Source: an uncultured archaeon (GTDB lineage Archaea > Micrarchaeota > Micrarchaeia > Micrarchaeales > CABMGC01). From it: a stretch of 64,000 bases of DNA. Within the stretch, counting starts at the first letter, position 1. Every line of letters begins with the position of its first letter. The DNA lies in NCBI GenBank assembly GCA_963787445.1, contig CAWBCT010000005.1, positions 64,001 to 128,000 on the forward strand, in the 5' to 3' direction. The translations under genes were made by a program, and so were the position numbers. Of this stretch, positions 36,801 through 62,003 are shown piece after piece. Under the pieces are notes generated by a model. That model ran no database searches, had not been told where the DNA came from, and saw only the letters and a list, made by a program, of their open reading frames with translations.

Positions 36801-36840
36801 CTAGGAGCTGTTGTAGAAGACTAGGAGCTGTTGTAGAAGA
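36801..36840. repeat. Perfect 20-bp tandem duplication including a stop codon
   Basis: CTAGGAGCTGTTGTAGAAGA x2. Confidence 0.9.
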
Positions 36841-38630: not shown

Positions 38631-41600
38631 TTAGTCTGTTCCCCTCTTCCTGAGCACCATGGCGATAGCGTCAGCTATCAGCTGCTGCTCCTTCTGCCTG
38701 CTGAGCCTCCTGCCCGAGAGTCCCGAGGCCCTCTTCTTTGCCCTGGAGAGTATCTCCTTGGCTGTGCCGCCGGAAGCCATCCTCTTCTCCGAGTCGGCCC
38801 GCATTCTCTTCGTCTCCTTCTCCGCATCGGCGAGTATCCTCTTTGCCTCTGCCCGGGACTGGGCCAGTATGGCCTCGCGCCGGGCGGACGGCGTTGGCTG
38901 CCTGCGCGCGGCGGGCGGGGCTGGGCGCGGGGAGAGCTTGCGCTGTGGGAGCTCTGGGGCGGCGGCCTCCGGCTCCTCCTCCTCCTCTTCCTCAGGCTCT
39001 ACCTTCTTGGGCTTTCTCTGCCGCCTCATCCTCCTGCCGATGAGCGACATCGCGGACACTATGGCGGACGGGCCGGCGCGCTTCTCCATCCTCCTTCTCC
39101 TTATTATGAGCCAGAGCGCGATGGCTATCAGGGCGATGGCGCCGGCCAGGCCCAGGGCGTCATAGAACGGCGTGTTGTTGACCGGAGGCGGTACCACCAC
39201 AGGTATGGTGGTGGTAGTGCTGGTGCCGAGGGTAGTGACCGTGGTGGGCACGGTGACGTTCCCTATGCCAACGAAGCTGGTCAGCGAGAGCACCGGGTCC
39301 TGGTTGAAGGTCATCGTCACCTCGCAGGCCTGGGAGTTGACCGTGAACTTGTCCACCATTGCCCAGGAGAAGTTCGAGAGTATGAACGGGACCACCTTGT
39401 AGTAGGGGATGGCGCAGTTGTACCTGACCGAGACGTTCATCGAGGTGTTCAGCTGGTGCTGCAGGTTCGTGGTGGGCCGGATGGAGAGATTCTCGGTCAG
39501 CTCCGGCTGGTAGCCGGCGGGCAGCGCCGGCAGGAACGGCGACTGGGTCAGGTTCCTGATCGAGAGCAGCTGGTAGGCCGTTATCGATGAGGTGAGGTTC
39601 AGCGTCGTGTCCTCCCGGAGCAGGTGGACTATGGTCGGAGTCGTGTTGTAGGTTATTATCTCGGAGCTGAAGTTGTCCGTCGTGACGTTCAGCACCACCC
39701 TCTTGGGCAGCGCCGTTATCCTCAGCACTATGGACTGCTGGAGCGGGATGTAGGAGATGTTGACTATCTGCATGGAGTAGACGTAGTTCGGGTTCTGGTC
39801 CTGGACTATCAGGGTGCTCCGGTTCTGGTAGATCACGTAGCTCTGCCCGTTCACGGTTATTCCGGAGTTCGTGGGCGAGATGAAGTTCTCGGTGAAGTTG
39901 AGGAGCAGCCCGAACAGGGTGACGTTGAAGATGTCGGGCACCGCTATGCCGAGCACCACGTAGCCGTTCTGGATGGGCAGGACGGTGGGCTTCAGCAGTC
40001 CGCCTCCGCCGGCGCCGCCTACCCCACCGCCGCCACCGCCTCCGCCGCCACCGCCGCCTCCGCCTCCGCCTCCGGTGGTGACGTTGTAGCCCAGGCTGTT
40101 GGACACCTGCACCTGGGTGGTGGCGCTGTCGGTCGCCAGGAGATGGGCGGTGAATGCCCCTGTGCCCCAGGAGGCCTGCTGGGCGTAAATGTAGCTCATG
40201 GTTGTCAGGCTCGAGCCCGAGACGAGGTTCTGCGTAACGAGTGAGCCGGCCGGGTTGTAGACCAGGAAGTTGTAGGTGTAGGGAGGCGTGCCGCCGCCGA
40301 TTGCCGCCTCAAGCAGCTGGCCGCCAGTGGTGGTCGTGGTCGGGTTGAGCGGGATGAACTGGGTGGAGATAAGCGGCGTGTTTGCGGCGTAGGCGAGCGT
40401 GTTCGAGACCGTGTTGGAGGTCGCATCGGTCACCAGGATGTTGGCCGTGAACCCTCCGGTGCCGAAAGCCGGGCTCTGGACGAAGAGGAAGGAGTTCGAG
40501 ATCTGCGGGCTGGCGTAGAGGGCGTTGGCGACCAGGGCACCGATCGAGTTGTAGACCAGGAAGTTGTAGGTGTAGGGGCTGAGGCCTCCGTTTATGTGCA
40601 TGCTAAGCGCCTGGTACTGGTTCTGGTCTATCAGGGAGTTGCCGGCGGTCCAGCTAATCTGGGTCAGCGGGCCGATGAGTGTGAATGTCAGCGTGTTGGA
40701 GACCGTGACAGGGACTCCGGCGTTGTCCGTCAGGTAGACGTTGGCGGTGTAGGTGCCGGTGCTCCAGGTGCCCAGGCTCTGGAAGAGGAAGGTGTTGCTG
40801 GTCGAGAGGCCCGTGTAAAGCTGGTTTGTCACCAGGGCGCCGATGGAGTTGTAGACCACGAAGTTGTAGGTGTAGGGGCTTGAGCCTCCGGTGAGCTGCG
40901 CGGAGAGCAGCTGGTACTGGTTGAAGTTTAGTACTGAGTTTGAGGCTGTGAACAGGCTCGAAACCAGCAGCGGGCTGATCGTCACTGTGCTGCTCTTTAC
41001 AGAATTTGCGGTCACCGCGTTCGCGGCGCTGTCGGTCACTATCACATTGGCCTGGATCGTGTTTCCTGCGTCAGAGTTCATCGTCGTGTAGGTGAAGGTG
41101 TTTGAGGCTGTTGGGACTGCGGTGTACAGCGCATTGGCGAACAGGTTGCCTGTTATCGTATTTACCACCAGGAAGTTGTAGGTGTAGGAGGATGTCCCGC
41201 CTCCGGCGGTTCCAGTGAAGGTTACCGTCTGGCCAGCATCGACCTCCAGGCTTGAGACTGTGATTGAAGGCGCAAGGGGGGGCTGGATGGTAAAGATTCC
41301 GGACAGTATGGAGTTGACGATTAACTGATTTGCGGAGGTGTCTATGACGAAGACGTTCGCGACTAGAGTGTTGCCGGCGTTCGCAGAGTTGACTGGGAAG
41401 GCGTAGGTGGTTCCTGACTGGCCGCCGGAAGTTCCTACCAAAGTGTTAGTGACCGAGTTATACACGAAGAAGTTGTAGGTGTAGGATCCTGTGCCGCCGG
41501 AGGCGGAGGCGGTGAAGATGATGGAGGTTCCCTGATCGTAGTTGGCGTTAGAGGATGGGGTTATGGTTGGGGTGTTGAGTGAGGTGAAGACTGTAAAGAC

Positions 41601-44600
41601 TCCTGACTTGATGGAGTTGACTGTTACCTGGTTTGCGGAGGTGTCTATGACGAAGACGTTCGCGACTAATGTGTTTCCGGCGTTCGCGGAGTTGACTGGG
41701 AAGGCGTAGGTGGTTCCTGCCTGGCCGCCGGAAGTTCCTACCAAAGTGTTAGTGACCGAGTTATACACGAAGAAGTTGTAGGTGTAACTGCCTGTGCCGC
41801 CGGAAGCGGAAGCGGTGAAGATGATGGAGGTTCCTTGGTCGTAGTTGGCGTTACTGGATGGGGTGATGGTCGGGGTGTTGAGTGAGGTGAAGACTGTAAA
41901 GACTCCTGACTTGATGGAGTTGACTGTTACCTGGTTTGCGGAGGTGTCTATGACGAAGACGTTTGCGACTAATGTGTTGCCTGCGTTCGCGGAGTTGACT
42001 GGGAAGGCGTAGGTTGTTCCTGCCTGGCCTCCGGAAGTCCCTACCAAAGTGTTAGTGACCGAGTTATACACGAAGAAGTTGTAGGTGTAGGATCCTGTGC
42101 CGCCGGAAGCGGAGGCGGTGAAGATTATACTTGTGCCCTGGTCGTAGTTGGCGTTAGAGGATGGGGTTATGGTCGGGGTACCAAGCGTAGGTTTCACGGT
42201 GAAGACTCCTGACTTTATGGAGTTGACTGTCACCTGGTTTGCGGAGGTGTCGATGACGAAGACGTTCGCGACCAGGGTGTTGCCGGCGTTCGCGGAGTTG
42301 ACTGGGAAGGCGTAGGTGGTTCCTGACTGGCCGCCGGAAGTTCCTACTAAGGTATTCGTAACCGAGTTATACACGAAGAAGTTGTAGGTGTAACTGCCTG
42401 TGCCGCCGAAGGCGGAGGCGGTGAAGATTATACTTGTGCCTTGGTCGTAGTTGGCGTTACTGGAGGGGGTTATGGTTGGGGTGTTGAGTGAGGTGAAGAC
42501 TGTAAAGACTCCTGACTTGATGGAGTTGACTGTTACCTGGTTTGCGGAGGTGTCGATGACGAAGACGTTCGCGACCAGGGTGTTGCCGGCGTTCGCGGAG
42601 TTGACTGGGAAGGCGTAGGTGGTTCCTGACTGGCCGCCGGAAGTTCCCACTAAGGTATTCGTAACCGAGTTATACACGAAGAAGTTGTAGGTGTAACTGC
42701 CGGTGCCGCCGGAAGCGGAAGCGGTGAAGATTATACTTGTGCCTTGGTCGTAGTTGGCGTTACTGGAGGGGGTTATGGTTGGGGTGTTGAGTGAGGTGAA
42801 GACTGTGAAGGTTCCGGAGTGGATGGAGTTAGCTGCGATAGAATTACCAGAATTGTCCGTAACGAAGACGTTCGCGACTAGGGTGTTGCCGGCGTTCGCG
42901 GAGTTGACTGGGAAGGCGTAGGTGGTTCCTGACTGGCCCCCGGAAGTTCCTACCAAAGTGTTAGTGACCGAGTTATACACGAAGAAGTTGTAGGTGTAGG
43001 ATCCTGTGCCGCCGGAAGCGGAAGCGGTGAAGATTATACTTGTGCCCTGGTCGTAGTTGGCGTTAGAGGATGGGGCGATGGTTGGGGTACCAAATGTAGG
43101 CTTCACGGTGAATGTGCCGGACTTGATGGAGTTGACTGTTACCTGGTTTGCGGAGGTGTCGGTCACGAAGACGTTTGCGACTAATGTGTTGCCTGCGTTC
43201 GCGGAGTTGACTGGGAAGGCGTAGGTGGCTCCTGGCTGGCCGCCGGAAGTCCCTACCAAAGTGTTAGTGACCGAGTTATACACGAAGAAGTTGTAGGTGT
43301 AAGATCCTGTGCCGCCGGAAGCGGAAGCGGTGAAGATGATAGAGGTTCCTTGGTCGTAGTTGGCGTTACTCGATGGGGCGATGGTTGGGGTGTTGAGTGA
43401 GGTGAAGACTGTAAAGACTCCTGACTTGATGGAGTTGACTGTTACCTGGTTTGCGGAGGTGTCTATGACGAAGACGTTCGCGACTAGAGTGTTGCCGGCG
43501 TTCGCGGAGTTGACTGGGAAGGCGTAGGTGGTGCCTGACTGACCGCCGGAAGTTCCTACTAAGGTATTCGTAACTGAGTTATACACGAAGAAGTTGTAGG
43601 TGTAGGATCCTGTGCCGCCTGAGGCGGAGGCTGTGAAGATTATACTCGTGCCCTGGTCGTAGTTGGCGTTACTGGAGGGGGTTATGGTCGGGGTGTTGAG
43701 TGAGGTGAAGACTGTGAAGACTCCTGACTTTATGGAGTTGACTGTTACCTGGTTTGCGGAGGTGTCTATGACGAAGACGTTTGCGACTAGGGTGTTGCCG
43801 GCGTTCGCGGAGTTGACTGGGAAGGCGTAGGTGGTTCCTGACTGGCCGCCAGAAGTTCCCACTAAGGTATTCGTAACCGAGTTATACACGAAGAAGTTGT
43901 AGGTGTAGGATCCTGTGCCGCCGGAAGCGGAGGCGGTGAAGATGATGGAGGTTCCTTGGTCGTAGTTGGCGTTACTGGATGGGGTGATGGTCGGGGTGTT
44001 GAGTGGGGTGAAGACTGTGAAGGTTCCGGAGTGGATGGAGTTAGCTGCGACAGAATTACCAGAATTGTCCGTAACGAAGACGTTCGCGACCAGGGTGTTG
44101 CCGGCGTTCGCGGAGTTGACTGGGAAGGCGTAGGTGGTTCCTGACTGGCCGCCGGAAGTTCCCACTAAGGTATTCGTAACCGAGTTATACACGAAGAAGT
44201 TGTAGGTGTAACTGCCTGTGCCGCCGGAGGCTGTCACGCTAAATATTATGTCTGTGCCTTGATCATAATTGGAGTTGCTTGCAGGGGAAATGGTTGGTGT
44301 TCCAAGCGCAGCGTATACTGTAAAGGTTCCGGAGTGGATGGAGTTAGTTACAATTGAATTACCCGAATTATCTGTTACGAAGACGTTTGCGACTAGGGTG
44401 TTTCCAGCGTTGGCGGAGTTGACTGGGAAGGCGTAGGTGGTTCCTGACTGGCCGCCGGAAGTTCCTACCAAAGTGTTAGTGACCGAGTTATACACAAAGA
44501 AGTTGTAGGTGTAACTGCCTGTGCCGCCGGAAGCGGAGGCGGTGAAGATTATACTTGTGCCCTGGTCGTAGTTGGCGTTAGAGGATGGGGTTATGGTCGG

Positions 44601-53600: not shown

Positions 53601-56600
53601 AGTTACTGAGTTGTAGACTAGGAAGTTGTAGGTGTAGGATCCTGTGCCGCCGGAGGCGGAGGCGGTGAAGATGATGGAGGTTCCTTGATCGTAGTTGGCG
53701 TTAGAGGATGGGGTGATGGTCGGGGTGTTGAGAGAGGTGAAGACTGTGAAGGTTCCGGAGTGGATTGAATTGACTGTTACCTGATTTGCGGAGGTGTCGA
53801 TGACGAAGACGTTTGCGACTAATGTGTTTCCGGCGTTCGCGGAGTTGACTGGGAAGGCGTAGGTGGTTCCTGACTGGCCGCCGGACATTCCGACCAGGGT
53901 ATTGGTGACTGAGTTGTAGACTAGGAAGTTGTAGGTGTAACTGCCGGTACCGCCGGAAGCAGAGGCGGTGAAGATGATGGAGGTTCCTTGATCGTAGTTG
54001 GCGTTACTGGATGGGGTGATGGTCGGGGTTCCGAGTGTGGTTTTCACTGTGAGGACTCCTGAGAGTATAGAGTTCACCACCACCTGGTTTGCGGAGGTGT
54101 CGATGACGAAGACGTTTGCGACTAATGTGTTGCCGGCGTTCGCGGAGTTGACTGGGAAGGCGTAGGTGGTTCCTGACTGGCCGCCGGACATTCCGACCAG
54201 AGTGTTAGTTACTGAGTTGTAGACTAAGAAGTTGTAGGTGTAGGATCCTGTGCCGCCGGAGGCGGAGGCGGTGAAGATGATGGAGGTTCCTTGATCGTAG
54301 TTGGCGTTAGAGGATGGGGTGATGGTCGGGGTGTTGAGAGAGGTGAAGACTGTGAAGGTTCCGGAGTGGATTGAATTGACTGTTACCTGGTTTGCGGAGG
54401 TGTCGATGACGAAGACGTTTGCGACTAATGTGTTTCCGGCGTTCGCGGAGTTGACTGGGAAGGCGTAGGTGGTTCCTGACTGGCCTCCGGAAGTTCCTAC
54501 CAAAGTGTTAGTGACCGAGTTATACACGAAGAAGTTGTAGGTGTAACTGCCGGTGCCGCCGGAGGCGGAGGCGGTGAAGAGTATACTCGTGCCCTGGTCA
54601 TAGTTGGCGTTACTGGAGGGGGTTAGGGTTGGGGTACCAAGTGTAGATTTCACGGTGAAGACGCCTGATTTTATGGAGTTGACCGTTACCTGGTTGGCGG
54701 AGGTGTCGATGACGAAGACGTTGGCGACTAATGTGTTTCCGGCGTTCGCGGAGTTGACTGGGAAGGCGTAGGTGGTTCCTGACTGGCCGCCGGACATTCC
54801 GACCAGAGTATTGGTGACTGAGTTGTAGACTAGGAAGTTGTAGGTGTAACTGCCGGTGCCGCCGGAGGCGGAGGCGGTGAAGATGATTGAGGTTCCTTGA
54901 TCGTAGTTGGCGTTAGAGGATGGGGCGATGGTTGGGGTGTTGAGTGAGGTAAAGACTGTGAAGACTCCTGACTTGATGGAGTTGACTGTTACCTGATTTG
55001 CGGAGGTGTCGATGACGAAGACGTTTGCGACTAATGTGTTTCCGGCGTTCGCGGAGTTGACTGGGAAGGCGTAGGTGGTTCCTGACTGGCCGCCGGAAGT
55101 TCCTACCAAAGTGTTAGTGACCGAGTTATACACAAAGAAGTTGTAGGTGTAACTGCCGGTGCCGCCGGAGGCGGAGGCGGTGAAGATGATGGAGGTTCCC
55201 TGATCGTAGTTGGCGTTAGAGGATGGGGCGATGGTTGGGGTGTTGAGTGAGGTGAAGACTGTGAAGACTCCTGACTTTATGGAGTTGACTGTTACCTGGT
55301 TTGCGGAGGTGTCGATGACGAAGACGTTTGCGACTAATGTGTTTCCGGCGTTCGCGGAGTTGACTGGGAAGGCGTAGGTTGTTCCTGACTGGCCGCCGGA
55401 CATTCCGACCAGAGTGTTAGTTACTGAGTTGTAGACTAGGAAGTTGTAGGTGTAACTGCCGGTGCCGCCGGAAGCGGAGGCGGTGAAGATGATTGAGGTT
55501 CCTTGATCGTAGTTGGCGTTACTGGATGGGGTGATGGTCGGGGTTCCGAGTGTGGTTTTCACTGTGAGGACTCCTGAGAGTATAGAGTTCACCACCACCT
55601 GGTTTGCGGAGGTGTCGGTCACGAAGACGTTCGCGACCAGGGTATTGCCGGCGTTTGCACTATTGACTGGGAAGGCGTAGGTGGTTCCTGCCTGGCCGCC
55701 GGACATTCCGACCAGGGTATTGGTGACTGAGTTGTAGACTAGGAAGTTGTAGGTGTAGGATCCTGTGCCGCCGGAAGCGGAAGCGGTGAAGATGATGGAG
55801 GTTCCCTGGTCGTAGTTGGCGTTAGAGGATGGGGTTATGGTCGGGGTGTTGAGTGAGGTGAAGACTGTGAAGACTCCTGACTTTATGGAGTTGACTGTTA
55901 CCTGGTTTGCGGAGGTGTCGATGACGAATACGTTTGCGACCAGGGTGTTGCCTGCGTTCGCGGAGTTGACTGGGAAGGCATAGGTGGTTCCTGCCTGGCC
56001 GCCGGAAGTTCCTACTAAAGTATTAGTGACCGAGTTATACACGAAGAAGTTGTAGGTGTAACTGCCTGTGCCGCCGGAGGCGGAGGCGGTGAAGATTATA
56101 CTTGTGCCCTGGTCGTAGTTGGCGTTAGAGGATGGGGTTATGGTCGGGGTACCAAGCGTAGGTTTCACGGTGAAGACTCCTGACTTTATGGAGTTGACTG
56201 TTACCTGATTTGCGGAGGTGTCGATGACGAAGACGTTCGCGACTAGAGTGTTGCCGGCGTTCGCGGAGTTGACTGGGAAGGCGTAGGTGGTTCCTGCCTG
56301 GCCGCCGGACATTCCGACCAGGGTATTGGTGACTGAGTTGTAGACTAGGAAGTTGTAGGTGTAGGATCCTGTGCCGCCGGAAGCGGAAGCGGTGAAGATG
56401 ATGGAGGTTCCCTGGTCGTAGTTGGCGTTACTGGAGGGGGTTATGGTCGGGGTGTTGAGTGAGGTGAAGACTGTGAAGACTCCGGAGTGGATGGAGTTGG
56501 TTGTTACTTGTGTCGTTGCAGTGTCGGTCACAAAGACGTTTGCAACTAAGGTATTACCTGCGTTTGCACTATTTACTGGGAAGGCGTAGGTGCTTGATGC

Positions 56601-59600
56601 CTGTGGCCCTGACATGCCTACTATCGTGTTGGTGACCGAGTTGTAGACTAGGAAGTTGTAGGTGTAACTGCCGGTGCCGCCGGAAGCGGAGGCGGTGAAG
56701 ATGATACTTGTGCCCTGGTCGTAGTTGGCGTTGGATGAGGGTGTGATGCCCGGTGTGTTGAGCGCCGAGTAGACTGTGATGGTGTAGGGTATCGTATTGA
56801 AGGTCACCGGGCTGGATGCCTGGTCTTTCGCGATCACGTTGTAGGTGTAGGTGCCTGCACCAAGGGTTGACGCGAGGACTGTGAGCACGTTTGTGGTCAG
56901 GGAGGTGTAGGGGGAGTTGGAGGAGTATACTGGTGTTCCGCCGTTATAGATTATCTGGTTGTAGGTGAACTGCGGGGTTCCGCCCGTGATTGTTGCGGTC
57001 TGGATTACGGTCTGGCCTATATCATAGGACGTTGTGCCGGGGGATGACGAGATCGACGGCGCCGTATTGACCGTTATCTGGTTTGTCCCGGTGTAGGCAA
57101 TCTCGTTGGTGGTTGCGCCGTCCACCTCCTTTACGCAGTAGTAGGTGGGGGAGGAGGGTGTGAAGGTCTGGGAGAGCCCGGTGGTCCCGGTGGTGGTGTC
57201 GGAAGTGCAGGTTGCGGAGGCTCCTGAGAACCAGGTGTAGGTGTAGCCCGGCGAGCCCGTGCTTGCGGCGGGGATGGTCAGGGTCGTGGATTGCCCGTTG
57301 TCTATCACAACATTGGAAGGGTTAGGCGTGGTTAGGGTTGAGTTGGAGCTGTAGGTCACCAGGTTGTTGATGGTCATGTAGTAGACGGAGTTGGTGGTGA
57401 CTATGTCGTTCGCCCACCTCTGCATGTTCAGGTCCATGGAGTAGGTGATCGCGTTGAGCGGAATGTTGTTGTTTGCCTGGACGAAGCCCATCTTCGCGCC
57501 GTTCAGGTAGAAGCTGGCCACGGAGTTGCTTGCGGTCCTGCTCAGCTGGACGAGGAAGTTTCCGTTGTATTGAATCGTCCCGGTCGTGCTTGCGGGGCGA
57601 AGGACCGTGTAGTTGAAGTCGCCCCCGCCCGACTGGATGTAGCCCAGCATCGAGCCGTCGGCGATCTTGACTATTATCCCGTACTGCGCTCCGGTCGCGC
57701 TGGAGGCATAGACGTCGTAGTCGTCCTCGCCGTTGGCGGCGTTATTGACTACGCCGTTGAACACCCCGTTGAACGAGTAGGCATAGATCTGGTTCGAGGT
57801 TCCGGTGTACTGGGAGTAGCTCGGCACCGCGCAGATGTTGTTTCCTGGGAAGAGCAGCGTGAACAGGGTGAGCTGGTTTGAGGAGGCGGCTCCCGAAGTT
57901 CCGGCGCAGGTGGTGGCCGCGGTGAGCATGGTGTTGGTCACGGTGGTTATTATCTGCGCGCCGTTGGCGGTGAACGGCGAGTTCTCTATGACGCTGCTGG
58001 CCCCGCTGCACACCTGGGTCTGGGTATCGGTGAGGCTGTAGGAGTAGCTGGAGGTCGTGCTGGTGTAGGGTACGGTGGGCTGCGGCTCGGAGAAGAGGGT
58101 CGTGCCTGCGCCCAGTGGTGTGCCTGCGCAGGAGGCGAATCGGTAGTAGGACATGGTATAGGGCGCAACGCCGCCGGTCGGGTTTCCTGTGAGAAGGGTG
58201 TTCTGGCCGAAGTCGACTATGGTGTTGGAGACGGTCAGGGGGTTGGCGAAGAGGGTAGAGTAGGTGAGGGTTATAGGACCAGAGCACACCGCCCCGTTTG
58301 AGGAGTCGGCGACCCGGTAGCTGTAGGTGTTGGAGGCCAGGGGCGAGGCTGCATAGGTCGGCAGGGTCGCTCCGGCTATCACGTTGGCGGCGTTGCAGGC
58401 GGGGTTGCCGGCGCTGTTCACATACCAGGTGTAGGTGTAGGGCGAGATGCCGTTGAAGGCGTGGGCGCCGATCGGATAGGGCTCGGTCTGCTGTGCGACG
58501 TAGTAGGTCGGCATGGTGTGGTAGGTGGTCAGGTTGGAGACTATCATGTAGTCAACGGAGTTGCTGCTTATCCAGCCGTTGGAGGCCCTGGCTACCCCGA
58601 TCACCGACCAGAACGAGAGCGAGTTGAGGGGGAAGGTGTTGCCGGCGTCGGCGACCGACCCGAGCAGCAGCCCATTCAGGTAGAACGAGGCCGTCGTCCT
58701 GACTCCGTTGTAGGTCAGTGCCGCGTAGAAGTTGCCAGTGTAGGAGATGGGGGAGTTGGAAGGCCCGGCGGCGTGCAGTATGGCGTACTGGAAGTCCAGG
58801 TTGTTTGACTGGAGGTAGCCCAGGAGCGAGCCGTCGGCGATCTTTGAGATGAACCCGAACTCCACGCCGTTGAAGAAGAGCGAGTTGGCCATGAAGATGT
58901 TTTCGATGTCGTTAGGCCCGGCGAGGGTGTTCGACATCCCGTTGAAGGCCCCGTTGTAGCTGAACGAGTCAAGCGGGTCAGGGCCGCCGTTGGCCCCTTG
59001 TCCGGTCATCTGGATATACTGGGCGGTGTTCGGAAGGCCGCAGACGCCGTTGTTCGGCATTATGACCTTGAACTGGTAGAGGAGCGGCGAGCTGACGTCG
59101 CCGTTGGCGCCGTTGCAGTCGGTGGAGCCGGTCATCTGGGTGCTGTTTATGAGTATGGCAGAGGTGGGAGTGTTTGCGGTGACGGCGATGTAGGCCGTTC
59201 CGATGGTTGTGTAGGGCAGGATGCCGTTCGGCGGATAGATGCGGGCGCGGGCCCAGATTATGTTCACCGCAAACGGGGTGATTGGGCCGTTGCCGCCTAT
59301 CACCAATGCAAGAGTGTTGGCTCCGACCGAGGTGACCAGCCCGTTGCCCGAGTCTGAGGTGATCACACTGTATCCTGCAGAGTAGAACTGGGTGCTGGCA
59401 GCGGGCCAGGCAACGCCTATCACGTTGGGTTGGGAGGTGACTATCCTGGTGCCGTAGACTCGGGACGCACCCGTGCTGGTATAGACTATGGCATTGACCG
59501 CGGTGAGCGCGTTGAAGCCGACGCCGTAGCCGCTGTCGAAGCCGTTGGTGCCGAACGTCGGGGTTCCAGACACGATCTCAACGCCAGGCAGCTTCAGGGC

Positions 59601-61634
59601 GCTGTTGGTGCTGGACCTGATGCCCGCCTCAAACCAGAACTGGCCGCTCAGCGTACTGGCTGAGCTGAGGCCTATCGCATTAACTCCAACGGAGTTCATG
59701 GTGAGGCCGTTGTTTATGATTGCGTTGTCCGCGAATGCGTTGGCTCCGCCGGCGCTGACGGCCACCTTGGCCCAGAGCGAGCCCGGGACCTTGGGACCGA
59801 TGCCGTTGAAGTTGTCATAGAACGAGAACATAGAATAGCCGTCGTCGTACTGGCCGTAGTTGCAATTCGTCGTTGTGACCGTGCCTATCGAACATGAGAG
59901 CTGGGGTGCTTCACCCGTGTTTACGTTGTTGAGAAGTATGTTGGCAGCAATCTGGCCGTTTCCCAAGCTGTTTTGGGCCCAGCCCAGGTAGATCGTGTTG
60001 GTCGTCGGAGTGCCCGTGTTGGCCGGGAGGAAGGTGCTGGGCCACGGAGCCTTGACCCAGTAAAGTATATTGGCGCTGTTTATCAGCGAGTTGGCAGAGG
60101 ATGGAGCCGTGCACAGGCCGTTTGCAGTGGTCTCGCCGACAAGGTTGCCCTCCAGCCAGGAGTTGATGACCATGCCGTTCGGGAAGAAGAACTCGGCGTT
60201 GTCAAGGTTGCAGGTGTAGTACTGGGCGTAGGTCTTGGCCGAGAAGCCGGTGACGACGTTTCCCGGCTGTACGCCGACGGCCAGGGGAGTGCCCGAGGCT
60301 ATCGCTGCATTCTGCTGGTTCGTGAATGTTATCGGAAGAAACTCCACGATGGGTGTGGGAAGTATTATCGCCGTCGGGTCGAGGGGAGTGTAGTTCGCAT
60401 TGCCGAACGTGTCAAAGGTGATATTTAGTGGCAGGCTTGCGGGCACCACGAAGGTCGAGAGGTTCAGGGCGAAGGCGCCGTGCGTTTCCGTCGTGTTGAT
60501 TAGGGTGGTATTGCCCTCCTTCACCGTTATCCTGTAGTTCATCGTGTTGTTGTCAACCACGCTGCCCAGGAGGGAGGGGGTGATGTTGTAGAATGCGCGG
60601 TTTTGGAGCTGCCCGTTGACCACGTAGCCCAGGGGCTCGGTGAGGGTGGTCACGCCGGCGGTGGTGATGTTCTGGCCGAGCACGCGTATGTCCAACCCGG
60701 GCCGGGCCTTTTTCACCGTGACGTTCAGGAGGGCGATTGAGTTGCCCGAAACAATGGCGAAGGTCAGATTTGAATTTGCATTCACGTACTTTCCTGACTG
60801 CCGGATAGAACCATAGGTGACGTTTATGCTGACGTTATTGATCGTTGCCGGGGCACCTCCTCTCGTATAGTTCCTGATCGCCTCACGCACCCTAAGCACC
60901 TGGCTTCTGTTGAGGGCAGTAAGGTTGGACAGTTGGGCGTAGTCCTGGAATCCTAGGATCGTGCCGTTGTAGCTCCCGTTCAAAACCCTTCTGAAGAGTG
61001 GGGAGAGGGATGACAGGCTGTTTGAGATGAAGAGGGAGTTCCTACCGAATGCGGTGTTGAGCCGACGCAGGGTCGTGGACAAGCTAGTAAGTGAGCCAAG
61101 CCGTTTGCCCAGAATGGAATTCGAGATGAGTGAGTTGGAGATGAGTGAATTTGAGATTAGGGAGTTGGTGGTGTTTAGGGCAGGTATCGTGGTTGTCGTG
61201 TTCAGGGTTGTCGTGGTCGTGTTCAGGGTGGTGGTCGTTATGTTCAGAGTAGTGGTTGTTGGAAGGGTGGTGGTTGTCGTTGTTTTGTTTATGGTCGTCG
61301 TTGGGAGAGTGGTGGTTGTCTTGTTTATGGTTGTGGTCGGAATGGTGGTGGTTGTGGTGTTTAGGGTCGTGGTCGGGAGCGTTGTGGTGTTGAGGCTGGT
61401 GGTCGGGAGGGTCGTGGTGTTGAGGGTGGTCGTGGTGTTCAAGGTGGTTGTGCTGGAGCTGGAGAGGTTTAGGATCGTCGTGACGGTTGTGGAGTTTATG
61501 CTTACGATGGAGTTGGAGGTGGTGTTTAACGTGCTGCTGGAGACGGTCGTGTTGGAGGCTGCCGCCACGGTTAGCAGTGCGAAGACGAATGCCACCGCCA
61601 TCAGCAACACTACAAATGCAACTTCGCCCTTCAT
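38631..61634 (-). CDS. Giant (~7,670 aa) membrane-anchored surface protein / putative adhesin with tandem Ig/PKD-like repeats
   Basis: Uninterrupted 23-kb ORF: signal peptide, Thr-rich region, DUF2341-like domain (GEAPQLS...YGQYDDG..F.FYDNF), two lectin-like domains, Ig-like repeats (GG..YTYNF), poly-Gly linker, TM, charged tail. Confidence 0.92.
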   Translation of the reverse strand: MKGEVAFVVLLMAVAFVFALLTVAAASNTTVSSSTLNTTSNSIVSINSTTVTTILNLSSSSTTTLNTTTTLNTTTLPTTSLNTTTLPTTTLNTTTTTIPTTTINKTTTTLPTTTINKTTTTTTLPTTTTLNITTTTLNTTTTTLNTTTTIPALNTTNSLISNSLISNSLISNSILGKRLGSLTSLSTTLRRLNTAFGRNSLFISNSLSSLSPLFRRVLNGSYNGTILGFQDYAQLSNLTALNRSQVLRVREAIRNYTRGGAPATINNVSINVTYGSIRQSGKYVNANSNLTFAIVSGNSIALLNVTVKKARPGLDIRVLGQNITTAGVTTLTEPLGYVVNGQLQNRAFYNITPSLLGSVVDNNTMNYRITVKEGNTTLINTTETHGAFALNLSTFVVPASLPLNITFDTFGNANYTPLDPTAIILPTPIVEFLPITFTNQQNAAIASGTPLAVGVQPGNVVTGFSAKTYAQYYTCNLDNAEFFFPNGMVINSWLEGNLVGETTANGLCTAPSSANSLINSANILYWVKAPWPSTFLPANTGTPTTNTIYLGWAQNSLGNGQIAANILLNNVNTGEAPQLSCSIGTVTTTNCNYGQYDDGYSMFSFYDNFNGIGPKVPGSLWAKVAVSAGGANAFADNAIINNGLTMNSVGVNAIGLSSASTLSGQFWFEAGIRSSTNSALKLPGVEIVSGTPTFGTNGFDSGYGVGFNALTAVNAIVYTSTGASRVYGTRIVTSQPNVIGVAWPAASTQFYSAGYSVITSDSGNGLVTSVGANTLALVIGGNGPITPFAVNIIWARARIYPPNGILPYTTIGTAYIAVTANTPTSAILINSTQMTGSTDCNGANGDVSSPLLYQFKVIMPNNGVCGLPNTAQYIQMTGQGANGGPDPLDSFSYNGAFNGMSNTLAGPNDIENIFMANSLFFNGVEFGFISKIADGSLLGYLQSNNLDFQYAILHAAGPSNSPISYTGNFYAALTYNGVRTTASFYLNGLLLGSVADAGNTFPLNSLSFWSVIGVARASNGWISSNSVDYMIVSNLTTYHTMPTYYVAQQTEPYPIGAHAFNGISPYTYTWYVNSAGNPACNAANVIAGATLPTYAASPLASNTYSYRVADSSNGAVCSGPITLTYSTLFANPLTVSNTIVDFGQNTLLTGNPTGGVAPYTMSYYRFASCAGTPLGAGTTLFSEPQPTVPYTSTTSSYSYSLTDTQTQVCSGASSVIENSPFTANGAQIITTVTNTMLTAATTCAGTSGAASSNQLTLFTLLFPGNNICAVPSYSQYTGTSNQIYAYSFNGVFNGVVNNAANGEDDYDVYASSATGAQYGIIVKIADGSMLGYIQSGGGDFNYTVLRPASTTGTIQYNGNFLVQLSRTASNSVASFYLNGAKMGFVQANNNIPLNAITYSMDLNMQRWANDIVTTNSVYYMTINNLVTYSSNSTLTTPNPSNVVIDNGQSTTLTIPAASTGSPGYTYTWFSGASATCTSDTTTGTTGLSQTFTPSSPTYYCVKEVDGATTNEIAYTGTNQITVNTAPSISSSPGTTSYDIGQTVIQTATITGGTPQFTYNQIIYNGGTPVYSSNSPYTSLTTNVLTVLASTLGAGTYTYNVIAKDQASSPVTFNTIPYTITVYSALNTPGITPSSNANYDQGTSIIFTASASGGTGSYTYNFLVYNSVTNTIVGMSGPQASSTYAFPVNSANAGNTLVANVFVTDTATTQVTTNSIHSGVFTVFTSLNTPTITPSSNANYDQGTSIIFTASASGGTGSYTYNFLVYNSVTNTLVGMSGGQAGTTYAFPVNSANAGNTLVANVFVIDTSANQVTVNSIKSGVFTVKPTLGTPTITPSSNANYDQGTSIIFTASASGGTGSYTYNFFVYNSVTNTLVGTSGGQAGTTYAFPVNSANAGNTLVANVFVIDTSANQVTVNSIKSGVFTVFTSLNTPTITPSSNANYDQGTSIIFTASASGGTGSYTYNFLVYNSVTNTLVGMSGGQAGTTYAFPVNSANAGNTLVANVFVTDTSANQVVVNSILSGVLTVKTTLGTPTITPSSNANYDQGTSIIFTASASGGTGSYTYNFLVYNSVTNTLVGMSGGQSGTTYAFPVNSANAGNTLVANVFVIDTSANQVTVNSIKSGVFTVFTSLNTPTIAPSSNANYDQGTSIIFTASASGGTGSYTYNFFVYNSVTNTLVGTSGGQSGTTYAFPVNSANAGNTLVANVFVIDTSANQVTVNSIKSGVFTVFTSLNTPTIAPSSNANYDQGTSIIFTASASGGTGSYTYNFLVYNSVTNTLVGMSGGQSGTTYAFPVNSANAGNTLVANVFVIDTSANQVTVNSIKSGVFTVKSTLGTPTLTPSSNANYDQGTSILFTASASGGTGSYTYNFFVYNSVTNTLVGTSGGQSGTTYAFPVNSANAGNTLVANVFVIDTSANQVTVNSIHSGTFTVFTSLNTPTITPSSNANYDQGTSIIFTASASGGTGSYTYNFLVYNSVTNTLVGMSGGQSGTTYAFPVNSANAGNTLVANVFVIDTSANQVVVNSILSGVLTVKTTLGTPTITPSSNANYDQGTSIIFTASASGGTGSYTYNFLVYNSVTNTLVGMSGGQSGTTYAFPVNSANAGNTLVANVFVIDTSANQVTVNSIHSGTFTVFTSLNTPTITPSSNANYDQGTSIIFTASASGGTGSYTYNFLVYNSVTNTLVGMSGGQSGTTYAFPVNSANAGNTLVANVFVIDTSANQVTVNSIKSGVFTVKPTLGTPTITPSSNANYDQGTSIIFTASASGGTGSYTYNFLVYNSVTNTLVGMSGGQSGTTYAFPVNSANAGNTLVANVFVIDTSANQVAVNSILSGVFTVKPTLNTPTITPSSNANYDQGTSIIFTASASGGTGSYTYNFFVYNSVTNTLVGTSGGQSGTTYAFPVNSANAGNTLVANVFVTDTSANQVVVNSILSGVLTVKTTLGTPTITPSSNANYDQGTSIIFTASASGGTGSYTYNFLVYNSVTNTLVGTSGDQPGATYAFPVNSANAGNTLVANVFVTDTSGNAIAANSIYSGTFTVYSALGIPMLTSNPTLPASWAVGNTITYTASWSGGVSSYTVNFLVVNTITGSLAANYLTTNTFTSNSFTWLIPLADIGNTLQANVIITDSAANVETTNSVPSGTLTVISSYTPPAVTISAPSNSLVDVGQYETFTATEAGGSTTSFTYNFLVVNSVTLGTIAHNALFQSVSSTTSTFTYQVISSDVANSPEKANVVLTDTNPTTVNSVYTSTFTISPAPTVSITPSSNANYDQGTSIIFTASASGGTGSYTYNFLVYNSVTNTLVGMSGGQPGATYAFPVNSANAGNTLVANVFVTDSATTHVTVNSILSGIFTVEPTLGTPTITPSSNANYDQGTSIIFTASASGGTGSYTYNFFVYNSVTNTLVGTSGGQSGTTYAFPVNSANAGNTLVANVFVIDTSANQVTVNSIKSGVFTVFTSLNTPTITPSSNANYDQGTSIIFTASASGGTGSYTYNFFVYNSVTNTLVGTSGGQSGTTYAFPVNSANAGNTLVANVFVIDTSANQVTVNSIKSGVFTVFTSLNTPTLAPSSNANYDQGTSIIFTASASGGTGSYTYNFLVYNSVTNTLVGMSGGQSGTTYAFPVNSANAGNTLVANVFVIDTSANQVTVNSIHSGTFTVFTSLNTPTITPSSNANYDQGTSIIFTASASGGTGSYTYNFFVYNSVTNTLVGTSGGQSGTTYAFPVNSANAGNTLVANVFVIDTSANQVTVNSIHSGTFTVFTSLNTPTITPSSNANYDQGTSIIFTASASGGTGSYTYNFLVYNSVTNTLVGMSGGQSGTTYAFPVNSANAGNTLVANVFVIDTSANQVVVNSILSGVLTVKTTLGTPTITPSSNANYDQGTSIIFTASASGGTGSYTYNFLVYNSVTNTLVGMSGGQSGTTYAFPVNSANAGNTLVANVFVIDTSANQVTVNSIKSGVFTVKPTLGTPTITPSSNANYDQGTSIIFTASASGGTGSYTYNFFVYNLVTNTLVGTSGGQAGTTYAFPVNSANAGNTLVANVFVIDTSANQVTVNSIHSGTFTVYTALGTPTITPSSNANYDQGTSIIFTASASGGTGSYTYNFLVYNSVTNTLIGMSGGQSGTTYAFPVNSANAGNTLVANVFVTDNSGNSIAANSIHSGTFTVFTSLNTPTITPSSNANYDQGTSIIFTASASGGTGSYTYNFFVYNSVTNTLVGTSGGQSGTTYAFPVNSANAGNTLVANVFVIDTSANQVTVNSIKSGVFTVFTSLNTPTITPSSNANYDQGTSIIFTASASGGTGSYTYNFLVYNSVTNTLVGTSSGQSGTTYAFPVNSANAGNTLVANVFVIDTSANQVTVNSIKSGVFTVKPTLGTPTITPSSNANYDQGTSIIFTASASGGTGSYTYNFFVYNSVTNTLVGTSGGQSGTTYAFPVNSANAGNTLVANVFVIDTSANQVTVNSIKSGVFTVFTSLNTPTITPSSNANYDQGTSIIFTASASGGTGSYTYNFFVYNSVTNTLVGTSGGQSGTTYAFPVNSANAGNTLVANVFVIDTSANQVTVNSIKSGVFTVFTSLNTPTITPSSNANYDQGTSIIFTASASGGTGSYTYNFFVYNSVTNTLVGTSGGQSGTTYAFPVNSANAGNTLVANVFVIDTSANQVTVNSIKSGVFTVFTSLNTPTITPSSNANYDQGTSIIFTASASGGTGSYTYNFFVYNSVTNTLVGTSGGQSGTTYAFPVNSANAGNTLVANVFVIDTSANQVTVNSIKSGVFTVFTSLNTPTIAPSSNANYDQGTSIIFTASASGGTGSYTYNFFVYNSVTNTLVGTSGGQSGTTYAFPVNSANAGNTLVANVFVTDNSGNSIAANSIHSGTFTVFTSLNTPTITPSSNANYDQGTSIIFTASASGGTGSYTYNFFVYNSVTNTLVGTSGGQSGTTYAFPVNSANAGNTLVANVFVIDTSANQVTVNSIKSGVFTVFTSLNTPTITPSSNANYDQGTSIIFTASASGGTGSYTYNFLVYNSVTNTLVGMSGGQSGTTYAFPVNSANAGNTLVANVFVIDTSANQVVVNSILSGVLTVKTTLGTPTITPSSNANYDQGTSIIFTASASGGTGSYTYNFLVYNSVTNTLVGMSGGQSGTTYAFPVNSANAGNTLVANVFVIDTSANQVTVNSIKSGVFTVKPTLGTPTITPSSNANYDQGTSIIFTASASGGTGSYTYNFFVYNLVTNTLVGTSGGQAGTTYAFPVNSANAGNTLVANVFVIDTSANQVTVNSIHSGTFTVYTALGTPTITPSSNANYDQGTSIIFTASASGGTGSYTYNFLVYNSVTNTLVGMSGGQSGTTYAFPVNSANAGNTLVANVFVTDNSGNSIAANSIHSGTFTVFTSLNTPTITPSSNANYDQGTSIIFTASASGGTGSYTYNFFVYNSVTNTLVGTSGGQSGTTYAFPVNSANAGNTLVANVFVIDTSANQVTVNSIKSGVFTVFTSLNTPTITPSSNANYDQGTSIIFTASASGGTGSYTYNFFVYNSVTNTLVGTSGGQSGTTYAFPVNSANAGNTLVANVFVIDTSANQVTVNSIHSGTFTVFTPLNTPTITPSSNANYDQGTSIIFTASASGGTGSYTYNFFVYNSVTNTLVGTSGGQSGTTYAFPVNSANAGNTLVANVFVIDTSANQVTVNSIKSGVFTVKPTLGTPTITPSSNANYDQGTSIIFTASASGGTGSYTYNFFVYNSVTNTLVGTSGGQSGTTYAFPVNSANAGNTLVANVFVTDNSGNSIVTNSIHSGTFTVYAALGTPTISPASNSNYDQGTDIIFSVTASGGTGSYTYNFFVYNSVTNTLVGTSGGQSGTTYAFPVNSANAGNTLVANVFVTDNSGNSVAANSIHSGTFTVFTPLNTPTITPSSNANYDQGTSIIFTASASGGTGSYTYNFFVYNSVTNTLVGTSGGQSGTTYAFPVNSANAGNTLVANVFVIDTSANQVTVNSIKSGVFTVFTSLNTPTITPSSNANYDQGTSIIFTASASGGTGSYTYNFFVYNSVTNTLVGTSGGQSGTTYAFPVNSANAGNTLVANVFVIDTSANQVTVNSIKSGVFTVFTSLNTPTIAPSSNANYDQGTSIIFTASASGGTGSYTYNFFVYNSVTNTLVGTSGGQPGATYAFPVNSANAGNTLVANVFVTDTSANQVTVNSIKSGTFTVKPTFGTPTIAPSSNANYDQGTSIIFTASASGGTGSYTYNFFVYNSVTNTLVGTSGGQSGTTYAFPVNSANAGNTLVANVFVTDNSGNSIAANSIHSGTFTVFTSLNTPTITPSSNANYDQGTSIIFTASASGGTGSYTYNFFVYNSVTNTLVGTSGGQSGTTYAFPVNSANAGNTLVANVFVIDTSANQVTVNSIKSGVFTVFTSLNTPTITPSSNANYDQGTSIIFTASAFGGTGSYTYNFFVYNSVTNTLVGTSGGQSGTTYAFPVNSANAGNTLVANVFVIDTSANQVTVNSIKSGVFTVKPTLGTPTITPSSNANYDQGTSIIFTASASGGTGSYTYNFFVYNSVTNTLVGTSGGQAGTTYAFPVNSANAGNTLVANVFVIDTSANQVTVNSIKSGVFTVFTSLNTPTITPSSNANYDQGTSIIFTASASGGTGSYTYNFFVYNSVTNTLVGTSGGQAGTTYAFPVNSANAGNTLVANVFVIDTSANQVTVNSIKSGVFTVFTSLNTPTITPSSNANYDQGTSIIFTASASGGTGSYTYNFFVYNSVTNTLVGTSGGQSGTTYAFPVNSANAGNTLVANVFVIDTSANQLIVNSILSGIFTIQPPLAPSITVSSLEVDAGQTVTFTGTAGGGTSSYTYNFLVVNTITGNLFANALYTAVPTASNTFTYTTMNSDAGNTIQANVIVTDSAANAVTANSVKSSTVTISPLLVSSLFTASNSVLNFNQYQLLSAQLTGGSSPYTYNFVVYNSIGALVTNQLYTGLSTSNTFLFQSLGTWSTGTYTANVYLTDNAGVPVTVSNTLTFTLIGPLTQISWTAGNSLIDQNQYQALSMHINGGLSPYTYNFLVYNSIGALVANALYASPQISNSFLFVQSPAFGTGGFTANILVTDATSNTVSNTLAYAANTPLISTQFIPLNPTTTTTGGQLLEAAIGGGTPPYTYNFLVYNPAGSLVTQNLVSGSSLTTMSYIYAQQASWGTGAFTAHLLATDSATTQVQVSNSLGYNVTTGGGGGGGGGGGGGGGGGVGGAGGGGLLKPTVLPIQNGYVVLGIAVPDIFNVTLFGLLLNFTENFISPTNSGITVNGQSYVIYQNRSTLIVQDQNPNYVYSMQIVNISYIPLQQSIVLRITALPKRVVLNVTTDNFSSEIITYNTTPTIVHLLREDTTLNLTSSITAYQLLSIRNLTQSPFLPALPAGYQPELTENLSIRPTTNLQHQLNTSMNVSVRYNCAIPYYKVVPFILSNFSWAMVDKFTVNSQACEVTMTFNQDPVLSLTSFVGIGNVTVPTTVTTLGTSTTTTIPVVVPPPVNNTPFYDALGLAGAIALIAIALWLIIRRRRMEKRAGPSAIVSAMSLIGRRMRRQRKPKKVEPEEEEEEEPEAAAPELPQRKLSPRPAPPAARRQPTPSARREAILAQSRAEAKRILADAEKETKRMRADSEKRMASGGTAKEILSRAKKRASGLSGRRLSRQKEQQLIADAIAMVLRKRGTD
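41290..51870 (-). repeat. Tandem array block 1: 35 x 303-bp coding repeats
   Basis: The YDQG codons recur every 303 bp from ~41531 to ~51832 (34 intervals). Confidence 0.9.
52515..56760 (-). repeat. Tandem array block 2: 14 x 303-bp coding repeats
   Basis: The YDQG codons recur from ~52774 to ~56713 (13 intervals); separated from block 1 by two divergent units. Confidence 0.9.
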
Positions 61635-61807
61635 ACGCAATCACTCAGAATTTTTGGTTCTGAGCCCTTTTTCTGTGTGAAGCGGTCACCACAACCCCTA
61701 AAGCGCAACTTCACTACTCTTGCGCACTTCGCTTCACTGATTTTCAATGTTTTATAATAGACTTAAGCTTATTAAGCCTTCCCCGTCAAAGCTGAGAGCC
61801 GAAAATA

Positions 61808-61829
61808 GGCTTTTTTGGCCAAAAAAGCC
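61808..61829. promoter_or_regulatory. Perfect 22-bp palindrome in the divergent promoter region of the giant gene
   Basis: GGCTTTTTTGGCCAAAAAAGCC. Confidence 0.5.
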
Positions 61830-62003
61830 CAAAAAAATGAAAAGTTCCGCTATTCAAGCCGTAAAAAATCAAAAAGTTTATTAAAATTCATGCAAAAATA
61901 ATGATTATCGGGGATTAGTGGACAGGCTATTCGTCGGTTTTGGCTGCAAATTTGCACTTTTGGGTAGGATGCTTTACGATACTTATTTAATCCTAGCCAG
62001 TTT

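Follow-up and report, generated by a model that had tools for sequence, protein, structure and literature searches.

We analysed a 64,000-nucleotide stretch of DNA from an uncultured archaeon (positions 64,001 to 128,000, forward strand, of contig CAWBCT010000005.1, assembly GCA_963787445.1; the stretch is called the window and the contig C5), in which one gene on the minus strand occupies 38631..61640. The gene is a single uninterrupted open reading frame (ORF) of 7,669 amino acids (aa) that starts with TTG (61640) and has an ATG at codon 3 (61634); the latter is where an initial annotation, made from the DNA letters alone, had placed the end of an ORF of ~7,670 aa. We consider, with modest confidence, that the product is a type-I anchored giant fibril whose non-enzymatic lectin-type head sits on about 59 beta-sandwich domains and attaches the cell to a ligand of a host or matrix. 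The analysis shows the gene itself, signals of its topology, how the stalk and one head domain fold, that the repeats are under purifying selection, and where N-glycosylation sites lie; export, extension, ligand binding and, as the most likely function, host attachment are inferred. The order of domains, the poly-Gly stretch, the membrane-proximal domain and the single transmembrane (TM) helix were as first annotated, and the tail, given there as ~160 aa, measured 156 aa. The features are as follows (AF2, AlphaFold2; pLDDT, predicted local distance difference test; HMM, hidden Markov model; Ig, immunoglobulin; ConA, concanavalin A; GH16, glycoside hydrolase family 16; pI, isoelectric point; sequon, the N-glycosylation site N-x-S/T).

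61557..61640, minus strand: start (TTG 61640, ATG 61634) and N-terminal hydrophobic segment, aa 1-28; Kyte-Doolittle window >1.8 over aa 3-31
60999..61556, minus strand: Thr/Asn-rich low-complexity region with short tandem repeats, aa 29-214; 14 sequons compared with a shuffled mean of 11.3
60375..60998, minus strand: N-terminal beta-rich domain, aa 215-422; AF2 pLDDT mostly >85, sequon-rich, no Pfam match
59835..60374, minus strand: DUF2341-like beta-sandwich, first half of the head module, aa 423-602; high AF2 confidence, core of 416 relatives
59166..59834, minus strand: ConA-like/GH16-like jelly roll without catalytic motif, aa 603-825; fold match to 4w65
58506..59165, minus strand: orphan jelly-roll-like domain 1 (jr1), aa 826-1045, one Cys pair; paralogue of jr2
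57939..58505, minus strand: two divergent Ig-like units (PYTYTW type), aa 1046-1234; matched by 66 of 252 fetched proteins
57345..57938, minus strand: orphan jelly-roll-like domain 2 (jr2), aa 1235-1432; paralogue of jr1
56772..57344, minus strand: two divergent Ig-like units, aa 1433-1623; Ig_3 sub-threshold, repeat HMM on aa 1519-1623 with E 1.4e-7
52530..56771, minus strand: canonical 101-aa repeats 1-14, aa 1624-3037; Tandem Repeats Finder and protein register
51891..52529, minus strand: two divergent repeats that break the array, aa 3038-3250; repeat HMM E 2.9e-16 and 1.8e-10
41286..51890, minus strand: canonical repeats 15-49, aa 3251-6785, including a segmental duplication; protein register
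40077..41285, minus strand: four divergent repeats, aa 6786-7188; repeat HMM, AF2 all-beta, pLDDT 74-92
39999..40076, minus strand: poly-Gly stretch, aa 7189-7214; disorder predicted, homologues likewise Gly-rich here
39231..39998, minus strand: membrane-proximal all-beta C-terminal (base) domain, aa 7215-7470, one Cys pair; AF2 pLDDT 65-89, sequon-rich
39102..39230, minus strand: Thr/Pro linker, aa 7471-7493, TM helix, aa 7494-7513, then RRRR; hydropathy
38634..39101, minus strand: cytoplasmic tail, aa 7514-7669, basic; pI 11.4, 42 K+R, 22 D+E

The data support a Micrarchaeota (DPANN) archaeon with a genome of ~1 Mb as the source organism, in agreement with the probable DPANN origin first suggested. 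Identity of its aIF2-gamma to the 15 best-matching loci was 64-74%, and among the top 20 the label Candidatus Micrarchaeota was carried by 18. The assembly (1,048,747 bases, or 1.05 Mb; completeness 82%, contamination estimate 5.4%) contains an archaeal small-subunit rRNA, and genome sizes of the 40 relatives sampled all fall within 0.6-1.1 Mb. The giant gene belongs to the archaeal portion of the contig, which has 54% GC, and its neighbours encode ribosomal protein S6e, aIF2-gamma, CDC48 and an archaeal CCA-adding enzyme. It makes up 2.2% of the assembly, in which the second-longest ORF encodes 2,026 aa. Thr, Ser, Asn and Gly account for 48% of the protein; the ectodomain has a pI of 4.4, and D+E+K+R are below 5% of its residues. 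All eight Cys pairs lie outside the stalk. An acidic protein of the haloarchaeal type was ruled out, since D+E amount to just 2.7%.

In the protein register, the repeat array consists of 49 canonical 101-aa units (14 + 35) split by two divergent units. Tandem Repeats Finder reported a period of 303 nt and 50.8 copies over 41308-56732, with 83% matches and 1% indels. An HMM of the canonical unit recovered 49/49 canonical and 7 divergent units at significant scores, and three more Ig-like units in the head were recognised solely via relatives bearing Ig_3/SprB/PKD domains. The protein has, in total, about 59 Ig-like domains (49 canonical and 10 divergent), which matches the 49 near-identical and roughly ten divergent repeats of the initial annotation. 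Mean identity among the canonical units was 85.2% for DNA and 91.5% for protein; 47 of the 49 DNA units were distinct, and 2 of 1,176 pairs were identical. The numbers of inter-unit differences at codon positions 1, 2 and 3 were 10,497, 7,147 and 34,998, respectively (pS 0.372, pN 0.069, pN/pS 0.19), and 92 of the 101 third positions were variable. Because the units differ mostly synonymously, each unit is under purifying selection. Identity between units was flat with distance (0.84-0.88 at 1-24 units) except for a segmental duplication, in which units 20-22 and units 32-34 are 99-100% identical; the longest exact self-match in the array spans 728 nt, between sites 12 units apart. The array arose by an expansion of moderate age and evolves under purifying selection. 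Among 17 relatives with at least 5 repeats, mean repeat identity within a protein was 32-64% in 16, and the 91.5% homogeneity of the giant protein is unusual.

An assembly echo of a single unit was rejected, because an assembler cannot invent the synonymous-biased variation between units. It is rather unlikely, in our judgement, that the gene is real and its array size partly an assembly product, with far fewer units than 49+ or with another order. Short contigs from four soil-metagenome runs of one study, at ≥99% identity, covered 29-30 of the 30 bins of 40500-58500 in each run with no indels reported, and the frame stays open for 23 kb; the distinctness of the DNA units and their synonymous-biased differences, which assembly errors do not yield, also speak against such a product. 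However, none of these contigs spanned the array and most could be placed at more than one position, which leaves the exact unit number unconfirmed. Within the array 24% of 31-mers and 82% of 151-mers are unique, and the 728-nt exact duplicate lies 12 units away; both favour an artefact of size. Summed word depth in one run averaged ~7.8 in the array and ~4.3 in the flanks, from which no copy number is derivable because most contigs fit several places. Thus, the content of the array was supported by short contigs, and its exact unit number and order were not.

The contig also bears on its own integrity. Its first part (C5:1-~79000; window 1-~15000) has a GC content of 62-72% compared with ~54% for the remainder, and window 1-14 kb contains a cbb3-type cytochrome oxidase cluster (CcoN, FixO, FixG, P-type ATPase) with 73-75% nucleotide identity to alphaproteobacterial replicons. 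The FixO subunit was found in 0/40 relatives. A chimeric join at about window 14-16 kb is likely, and a very recent large transfer is less likely. Given its GC content, its similarity to Alphaproteobacteria and the lack of FixO in relatives, the contig contains at least one wrong join (or such a transfer), a point in favour of a misassembled array; the chimeric segment also explains the contamination estimate.

The fold predicted for the stalk was that of a chain of beta-sandwiches, as first proposed for the repeats. A model of aa 6685-7490 comprised five beta-sandwiches (pLDDT 80-92), the disordered poly-Gly stretch and the all-beta base (pLDDT 65-89). The sandwiches matched tandem Ig/fibronectin type III (FN3) arrays at Z 11-14, including 6xi3, which comes from the extender region of a large bacterial adhesin (Z 11.7 over 378 aligned residues, 15% identity). 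The canonical repeat had no Pfam or NCBIfam match; Ig_3 on aa 1401-1623 was sub-threshold (E 3.9e-4, 21.3 bits compared with a cut-off of 30). The families PF13927, PF13573, PF00801 and PF18911 occur in relatives of the repeat, some of which bear the name 'PKD domain-containing protein'. Many of the 66 proteins that match the divergent units of aa 1046-1234 likewise carry Ig_3/SprB/PKD Pfam domains.

An exhaustive HMMER search with aa 201-1400 returned 416 proteins at E ≤ 0.001, for which aa 423-850 formed the common core; in other proteins this head module occurs 2-6 times in tandem. We scanned eight pieces of the giant protein against Pfam (E up to 10), and aa 1-1623, three repeats and aa 6786-7669 against NCBIfam. 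The first half of the head had been annotated as DUF2341-like. The giant protein gave no match to DUF2341 (PF10102; gathering score 23.4 bits) in the Pfam scan, and its best relative, P0002, scored 20.2 bits, below that gathering score. In an alignment of 60 rows (the query and 59 homologues), DUF2341 was matched in 6 rows (E ≤ 0.01, best 2.5e-5), the query not being among them. Because the query was unmatched and its relatives were sub-threshold or few, this beta-sandwich is at most a distant relative of DUF2341, and the name survives in that reduced sense. In the 60-sequence head alignment, the conserved motifs stand in the order expected of DUF2341 with a LamG-type domain after it.

The AlphaFold model of aa 215-1050 was confident over aa 229-824. 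Its N-terminal beta-rich domain (aa 215-422) was common to 20 of the 252 fetched proteins. Head structure prediction and a fold search, as suggested by the initial annotation, returned a ConA-like jelly roll: residues 603-803 superposed on 4w65 with Z 13.7 and rmsd 3.1 (175 residues aligned, 12-15% identity), Foldseek gave a probability of 1.00 and E 2.7e-5, and many GH16 chains superposed at Z 11.6-13.5. As modelled, aa 603-803 have the concanavalin A-like lectin/glucanase fold. GH16 enzymes carry the catalytic motif E-x-D-x(x)-E on this jelly roll. The motif was found neither in aa 423-850 nor in jr1 or jr2, and aa 603-803 contain 4 Asp and 2 Glu. A GH16-type enzyme was rejected for lack of the motif; since acidic residues are almost absent as well, the head jelly roll is of a binding type, not a catalytic one.

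The domains jr1 and jr2, annotated at first as two lectin-like domains, are paralogues with 36% identity (E 9e-42). Neither had a Pfam match (E up to 10), and no close relatives of aa 826-1623 were found among JGI metagenome contigs. In ESM-Atlas, the nearest clusters of both were Laminin_G_3 (score 0.95), and 10 of the 10 best family-bearing matches fell in one clan. This is a lead only: language-model features alone point to a kinship of jr1 and jr2 with LamG (Laminin_G_3, PF13385).

The giant protein contains 51 sequons, which are very unevenly distributed. Observed counts, with those expected from shuffles, were as follows.

aa 1624-7188, stalk (5,565 aa, 629 Asn): 1 observed, 179 ± 10 expected
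aa 423-825, head core: 0 observed, 7.5 expected
aa 215-422, N-terminal domain: 17 observed, 4.3 expected
aa 7215-7493, base domain: 15 observed, 5.0 expected

Because the repeats within the giant protein are copies of each other, we examined its relatives for the same avoidance. In 456 repeats of 117 homologues, Ser/Thr occupied the +2 position of Asn in 7.1% of 4,294 cases, compared with 21-45% at the other seven offsets from -4 to +4 (39% at -2). These repeats had 249 sequons compared with 1,282 expected, and 93 of the 117 proteins had less than half of the expected number. Since the +2 and -2 positions are asymmetric, a simple effect of beta-strand periodicity is ruled out. The pattern points to selection by an N-glycosylation system. 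A literature search on sequon avoidance in archaeal surface repeats gave nothing relevant, although it may still have been published. Surface ORFs near the giant gene are sequon-dense. Pfam STT3 was matched in 24 of 40 relatives at E ≤ 0.01, in 21 of them above the family cut-off (with the unpublished genome G038 set aside, 23 and 20 of 39); nothing matched it in the own assembly, which is 82% complete. The sole AglB/STT3-like locus of the genome (C5:573470-575240) matches AglB ORFs of the same genus in pieces over at least four reading frames; pseudogenisation or a local error of assembly may account for this.

At the N-terminus, the hydrophobic segment is predicted to act as a signal peptide or, alternatively, as a signal anchor that is not cleaved; an AAA/S sequence was noted by eye as a putative cleavage site. 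At the C-terminus, poly-Gly stretch, base domain and TM helix recur jointly in several relatives, and the poly-Gly region has the consensus GGxxGxGGxG in the homologue alignment. The base domain was common to 7 of the 252 fetched proteins (four near-full-length matches ≤~100 residues from the C-terminus, the rest shorter pieces); it belongs to no named family, and ESM-Atlas gave just unnamed clusters below 0.9. In the 156-aa tail, a poly-Glu run and a Pro-rich stretch precede a segment of helix type, rich in K/R/E/A. Its score of 26 bits against V-ATPase_G_2 (cut-off 28) most likely reflects the charged helix. Relatives of the tail were found in 0/252 fetched proteins and nowhere else in the own genome, in which the tails of ten other TM-anchored surface ORFs are 3-26 aa long.

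The same region gave a second reading of the anchor. The TM helix with RRRR scored 25.7 bits against the NCBIfam model PVV-CTERM (NF051874; cut-off 27) as a protein piece and 32 bits in a six-frame scan of the genome, where it was the sole match; a PVV tripeptide lies 13 residues ahead of the helix. Further, an ORF of 496 aa in the genome belongs to the exosortase/archaeosortase family (C5:~291366-292856; L091:835-2325, minus strand; TIGR04178, 55.3 bits compared with a cut-off of 23). Such an enzyme might cut a PVV-CTERM-type signal, so that the tail is lost and the protein is lipid-anchored or released; alternatively, the N-terminus, with its long hydrophobic region followed by a Thr-rich spacer, might stay uncleaved and both ends be anchored. 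We regard anchoring of either kind as very unlikely. Archaeosortase-type sorting signals end the protein within a few residues, and the 156 aa that follow the Arg cluster here are atypical of them. The match is limited to profile positions 8-33 of 38, and no C-terminal motif that would mark candidate sortase substrates is common to the 11 anchored surface ORFs of the genome (the giant protein and the ten others). The S-layer domain models TIGR01564 and TIGR01567, which are reported for the SLP of Ca. Micrarchaeum harzensis in the preprint record (10.1101/2021.04.28.441871), did not match; the NCBIfam scan gave PVV_CTERM alone.

Head and stalk had different distributions among relatives. In 41 related genomes, or 40 without G038, the head core was present in 31 (30 of 40) and the repeat, at E ≤ 1e-8, in 13 (12 of 40). 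The best outside identity was ≤63% over 82 residues for the head, with longer matches at 40-52%, and ≤54% in related genomes for the repeat. The largest frames in these genomes encode 3,473 and 3,797 aa, and many repeat matches lie a few hundred bases from a contig start, consistent with fragmentation of giant repeat genes in the relatives' assemblies. Among database proteins of 4,217-13,421 aa, five matched the giant protein. The closest, P0249 (5,538 aa, labelled Micrarchaeota), has only the stalk repeats in common, with up to 62% identity, and its N-terminus is a YVTN-propeller in place of the DUF2341/ConA-type head. Relatives of the repeat are large proteins of Micrarchaeota and Thermoplasmata. 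Three smaller paralogous surface ORFs of the own genome (903-1,301 aa; C5:193894-197631, C5:379843-383748 and C5:581383-584094) have the same repeat family with 38-48% identity; the first and third have C-terminal TM anchors and short basic tails, and the second was not among the anchored ORFs listed by the scan.

These distributions bear on whether the protein is instead a structural or protective coat or matrix protein, a brush, glycocalyx or biofilm linker as proposed for halomucin or bacterial matrix scaffolds. The 48% share of Thr/Ser/Asn/Gly, the mucin-like N-terminal region and the several smaller TM-anchored proteins of similar composition in the genome fit such a role, as does the inclusion of the biofilm scaffold RbmA among the fold matches of the stalk (Z 11.5). 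Further, dependence on biofilm growth is described for a cultivated Micrarchaeon in the available account (PMC8975820). However, the gene is single-copy, its lectin-type head at the distal end and its TM anchor give the product the layout of an adhesin, and heads are swapped between relatives while the stalk is retained; therefore ligand specificity fits better than bulk coating. We take a coat or matrix role to be unlikely.

As an attachment fibril, the protein would be arranged as follows. The base domain would be coated with glycans and would, through the flexible poly-Gly hinge, support the stalk of about 59 Ig/PKD-like beta-sandwich domains. A beta-sandwich domain measures ~4 nm; because about 59 of them are joined, the stalk would have a length of the order of 200-250 nm. 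The non-enzymatic head would stand at the far, N-terminal end, with the DUF2341-like sandwich and the ConA-type jelly roll, then the lineage-specific paralogues jr1 and jr2, and would most likely bind a ligand on the surface of a host cell or on matrix, be it carbohydrate or of another kind. N-glycosylation sites are kept out of the stalk repeats, and sequons are dense at both ends. A bolder version, which we hold to be doubtful, is a single-polypeptide 'fishing line' of about a quarter micron that reaches hosts a cell diameter away. In this version, specificity would reside in the orphan lectin-like pair, selection across the repeat family would keep the stalk N-glycan-free, perhaps for packing, sliding or recognition, and the 156-aa tail would couple pull or binding at the tip to the cell interior.

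Several results weigh against an attachment fibril as drawn here. For the extracellular part of the giant protein, no Pfam match exceeded its threshold, and NCBIfam gave none at all. No relatives of jr1 or jr2 were detected by phmmer among the 252 fetched proteins, by a profile search of PDB sequences or, as weak evidence, in a word-indexed search of proteins of 395-2000 aa; neither matched the profile of the head alignment (hhalign probability 0.3%), and the AF2 pLDDT of jr1 was below 50, with its fold not resolved. The two domains stand as a pair of paralogues with a language-model lead to Laminin_G_3, and as candidates for lectin-like domains. The N-terminal hydrophobic segment is ~22 residues long and possibly uncleaved. 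N-glycosylation in the source organism is only predicted, because the AglB-like locus is split over at least four frames. No RNA runs containing the giant gene were listed. Finally, to the lack of a spanning contig is added the chimeric bacterial join, which lies ~24 kb from the giant gene on the same contig.

The initial annotation saw here a candidate for an undescribed system. This was not sustained, because large LamG/PKD surface proteins have been published for Micrarchaeota, for Nanohaloarchaeota (SPEARE) and among archaeal 'huge proteins' (PMC5498576, PMC6642349, PMC11573180); the giant gene is a very large addition to a published kind of surface protein. For Mia14, a Micrarchaeon, Golyshina et al. 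(2017; PMC5498576) report strain-specific surface proteins with PKD folds and beta-propellers and expanded jelly-roll LamG-like proteins; four such proteins take up almost 2.5% of the ~1-Mb genome, and host interaction is proposed. By that description, the giant protein is similar in its phylum, its secreted or anchored nature, its PKD-superfamily repeats with jelly-roll domains and its large share of the genome. It differs from the Mia14 proteins, so described, in being a single polypeptide of 7,669 aa with 49 near-identical repeats and neither a CARDB nor a propeller domain.

Hamm et al. (2019; PMC6642349) describe the SPEARE proteins of Nanohaloarchaeota, which reach 8,553 aa and are mostly extracytoplasmic; they have laminin-G among other adhesion domains, a TM segment near the C-terminus and a cytoplasmic C-terminal part. 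The same account gives them serine-protease, toxin-like and type III restriction-enzyme domains and states that one was shown by proteomics to be made; host-interaction roles are proposed there as for the Mia14 proteins (PMC5498576, PMC6642349). Compared by this description, the giant protein resembles them as a DPANN giant with the same topology and a ConA-type head. However, the Pfam and NCBIfam scans found no restriction-enzyme, protease or toxin-like domain in it, and it is thus not counted as a SPEARE; unlike theirs, its tail is a 156-aa basic helix-type segment without a family match. The two largest archaeal proteins given in that account have 8,553 aa and about 9,000 aa (PMC6642349), and the giant gene ranks among the largest reported for Archaea.

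A 2024 survey (PMC11573180) names Laminin_G_3 near the N-terminus as the commonest architecture of archaeal proteins of more than 5,000 aa and describes its function as not understood. By architecture, the giant protein agrees with these 'huge proteins' in having one or more ConA-clan domains near the N-terminus of a very long chain, and differs from them in that its head falls below the Pfam thresholds of Laminin_G_3 and DUF2341. Its head shares with the DUF2341 + ConA-like/LamG module the motif order, a beta-sandwich and then a jelly roll; unlike DUF2341 (PF10102) proteins, it has no match of its own to the family at E up to 10. As in the bacterial giant repeat adhesins represented by 6xi3, a long tandem array of ~100-aa beta-sandwiches keeps the ligand-binding region off the cell. 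The bacterial proteins use type I secretion, an N-terminal outer-membrane plug, a C-terminal binding region and stiffening by calcium. In contrast, signal and head of the giant protein are both N-terminal and its TM anchor lies near the C-terminus, and its stalk repeat has no evident calcium sites because it contains 2 Asp and no Glu. Points of interest of its own are the homogeneous array of 49 units, the orphan jr1/jr2 pair, the sequon map and the long tail.

Around the giant gene, the window contains the following. Upstream lies an AT-rich intergenic region of 360 nt (61641-62003) with TATA-like elements ~110-140 nt before the ATG, and beyond it a divergent neighbour (62004-62714) that encodes a 236-aa helical protein without a family. 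Two genes downstream, on the same strand, 36821-37837 encodes a 338-aa protein that is N-terminally anchored and sequon-rich and has a divergent InlB B-repeat (Flg_new_2, E 2e-8). Farther away, a 631-aa ORF (19816-21711, minus strand) combines a signal peptide and a Thr/Pro-rich region with a C-terminal TM segment and a Pro-rich tail, and N-x-S/T sequons are very numerous in it; it had no Pfam match and is a candidate for a major surface or S-layer-like glycoprotein.

The life of DPANN archaea depends on touching their hosts physically, and, to our knowledge, the molecules of the first contact are largely unknown. The giant gene illustrates the need for long-read confirmation of such repeat genes. 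It also offers handles for testing: a modular head that varies among relatives with a shared stalk, a position-specific avoidance of sequons, and a conserved module of poly-Gly stretch, base domain and TM helix. If a ligand of the head were found, it could identify the host of this uncultured soil Micrarchaeon.

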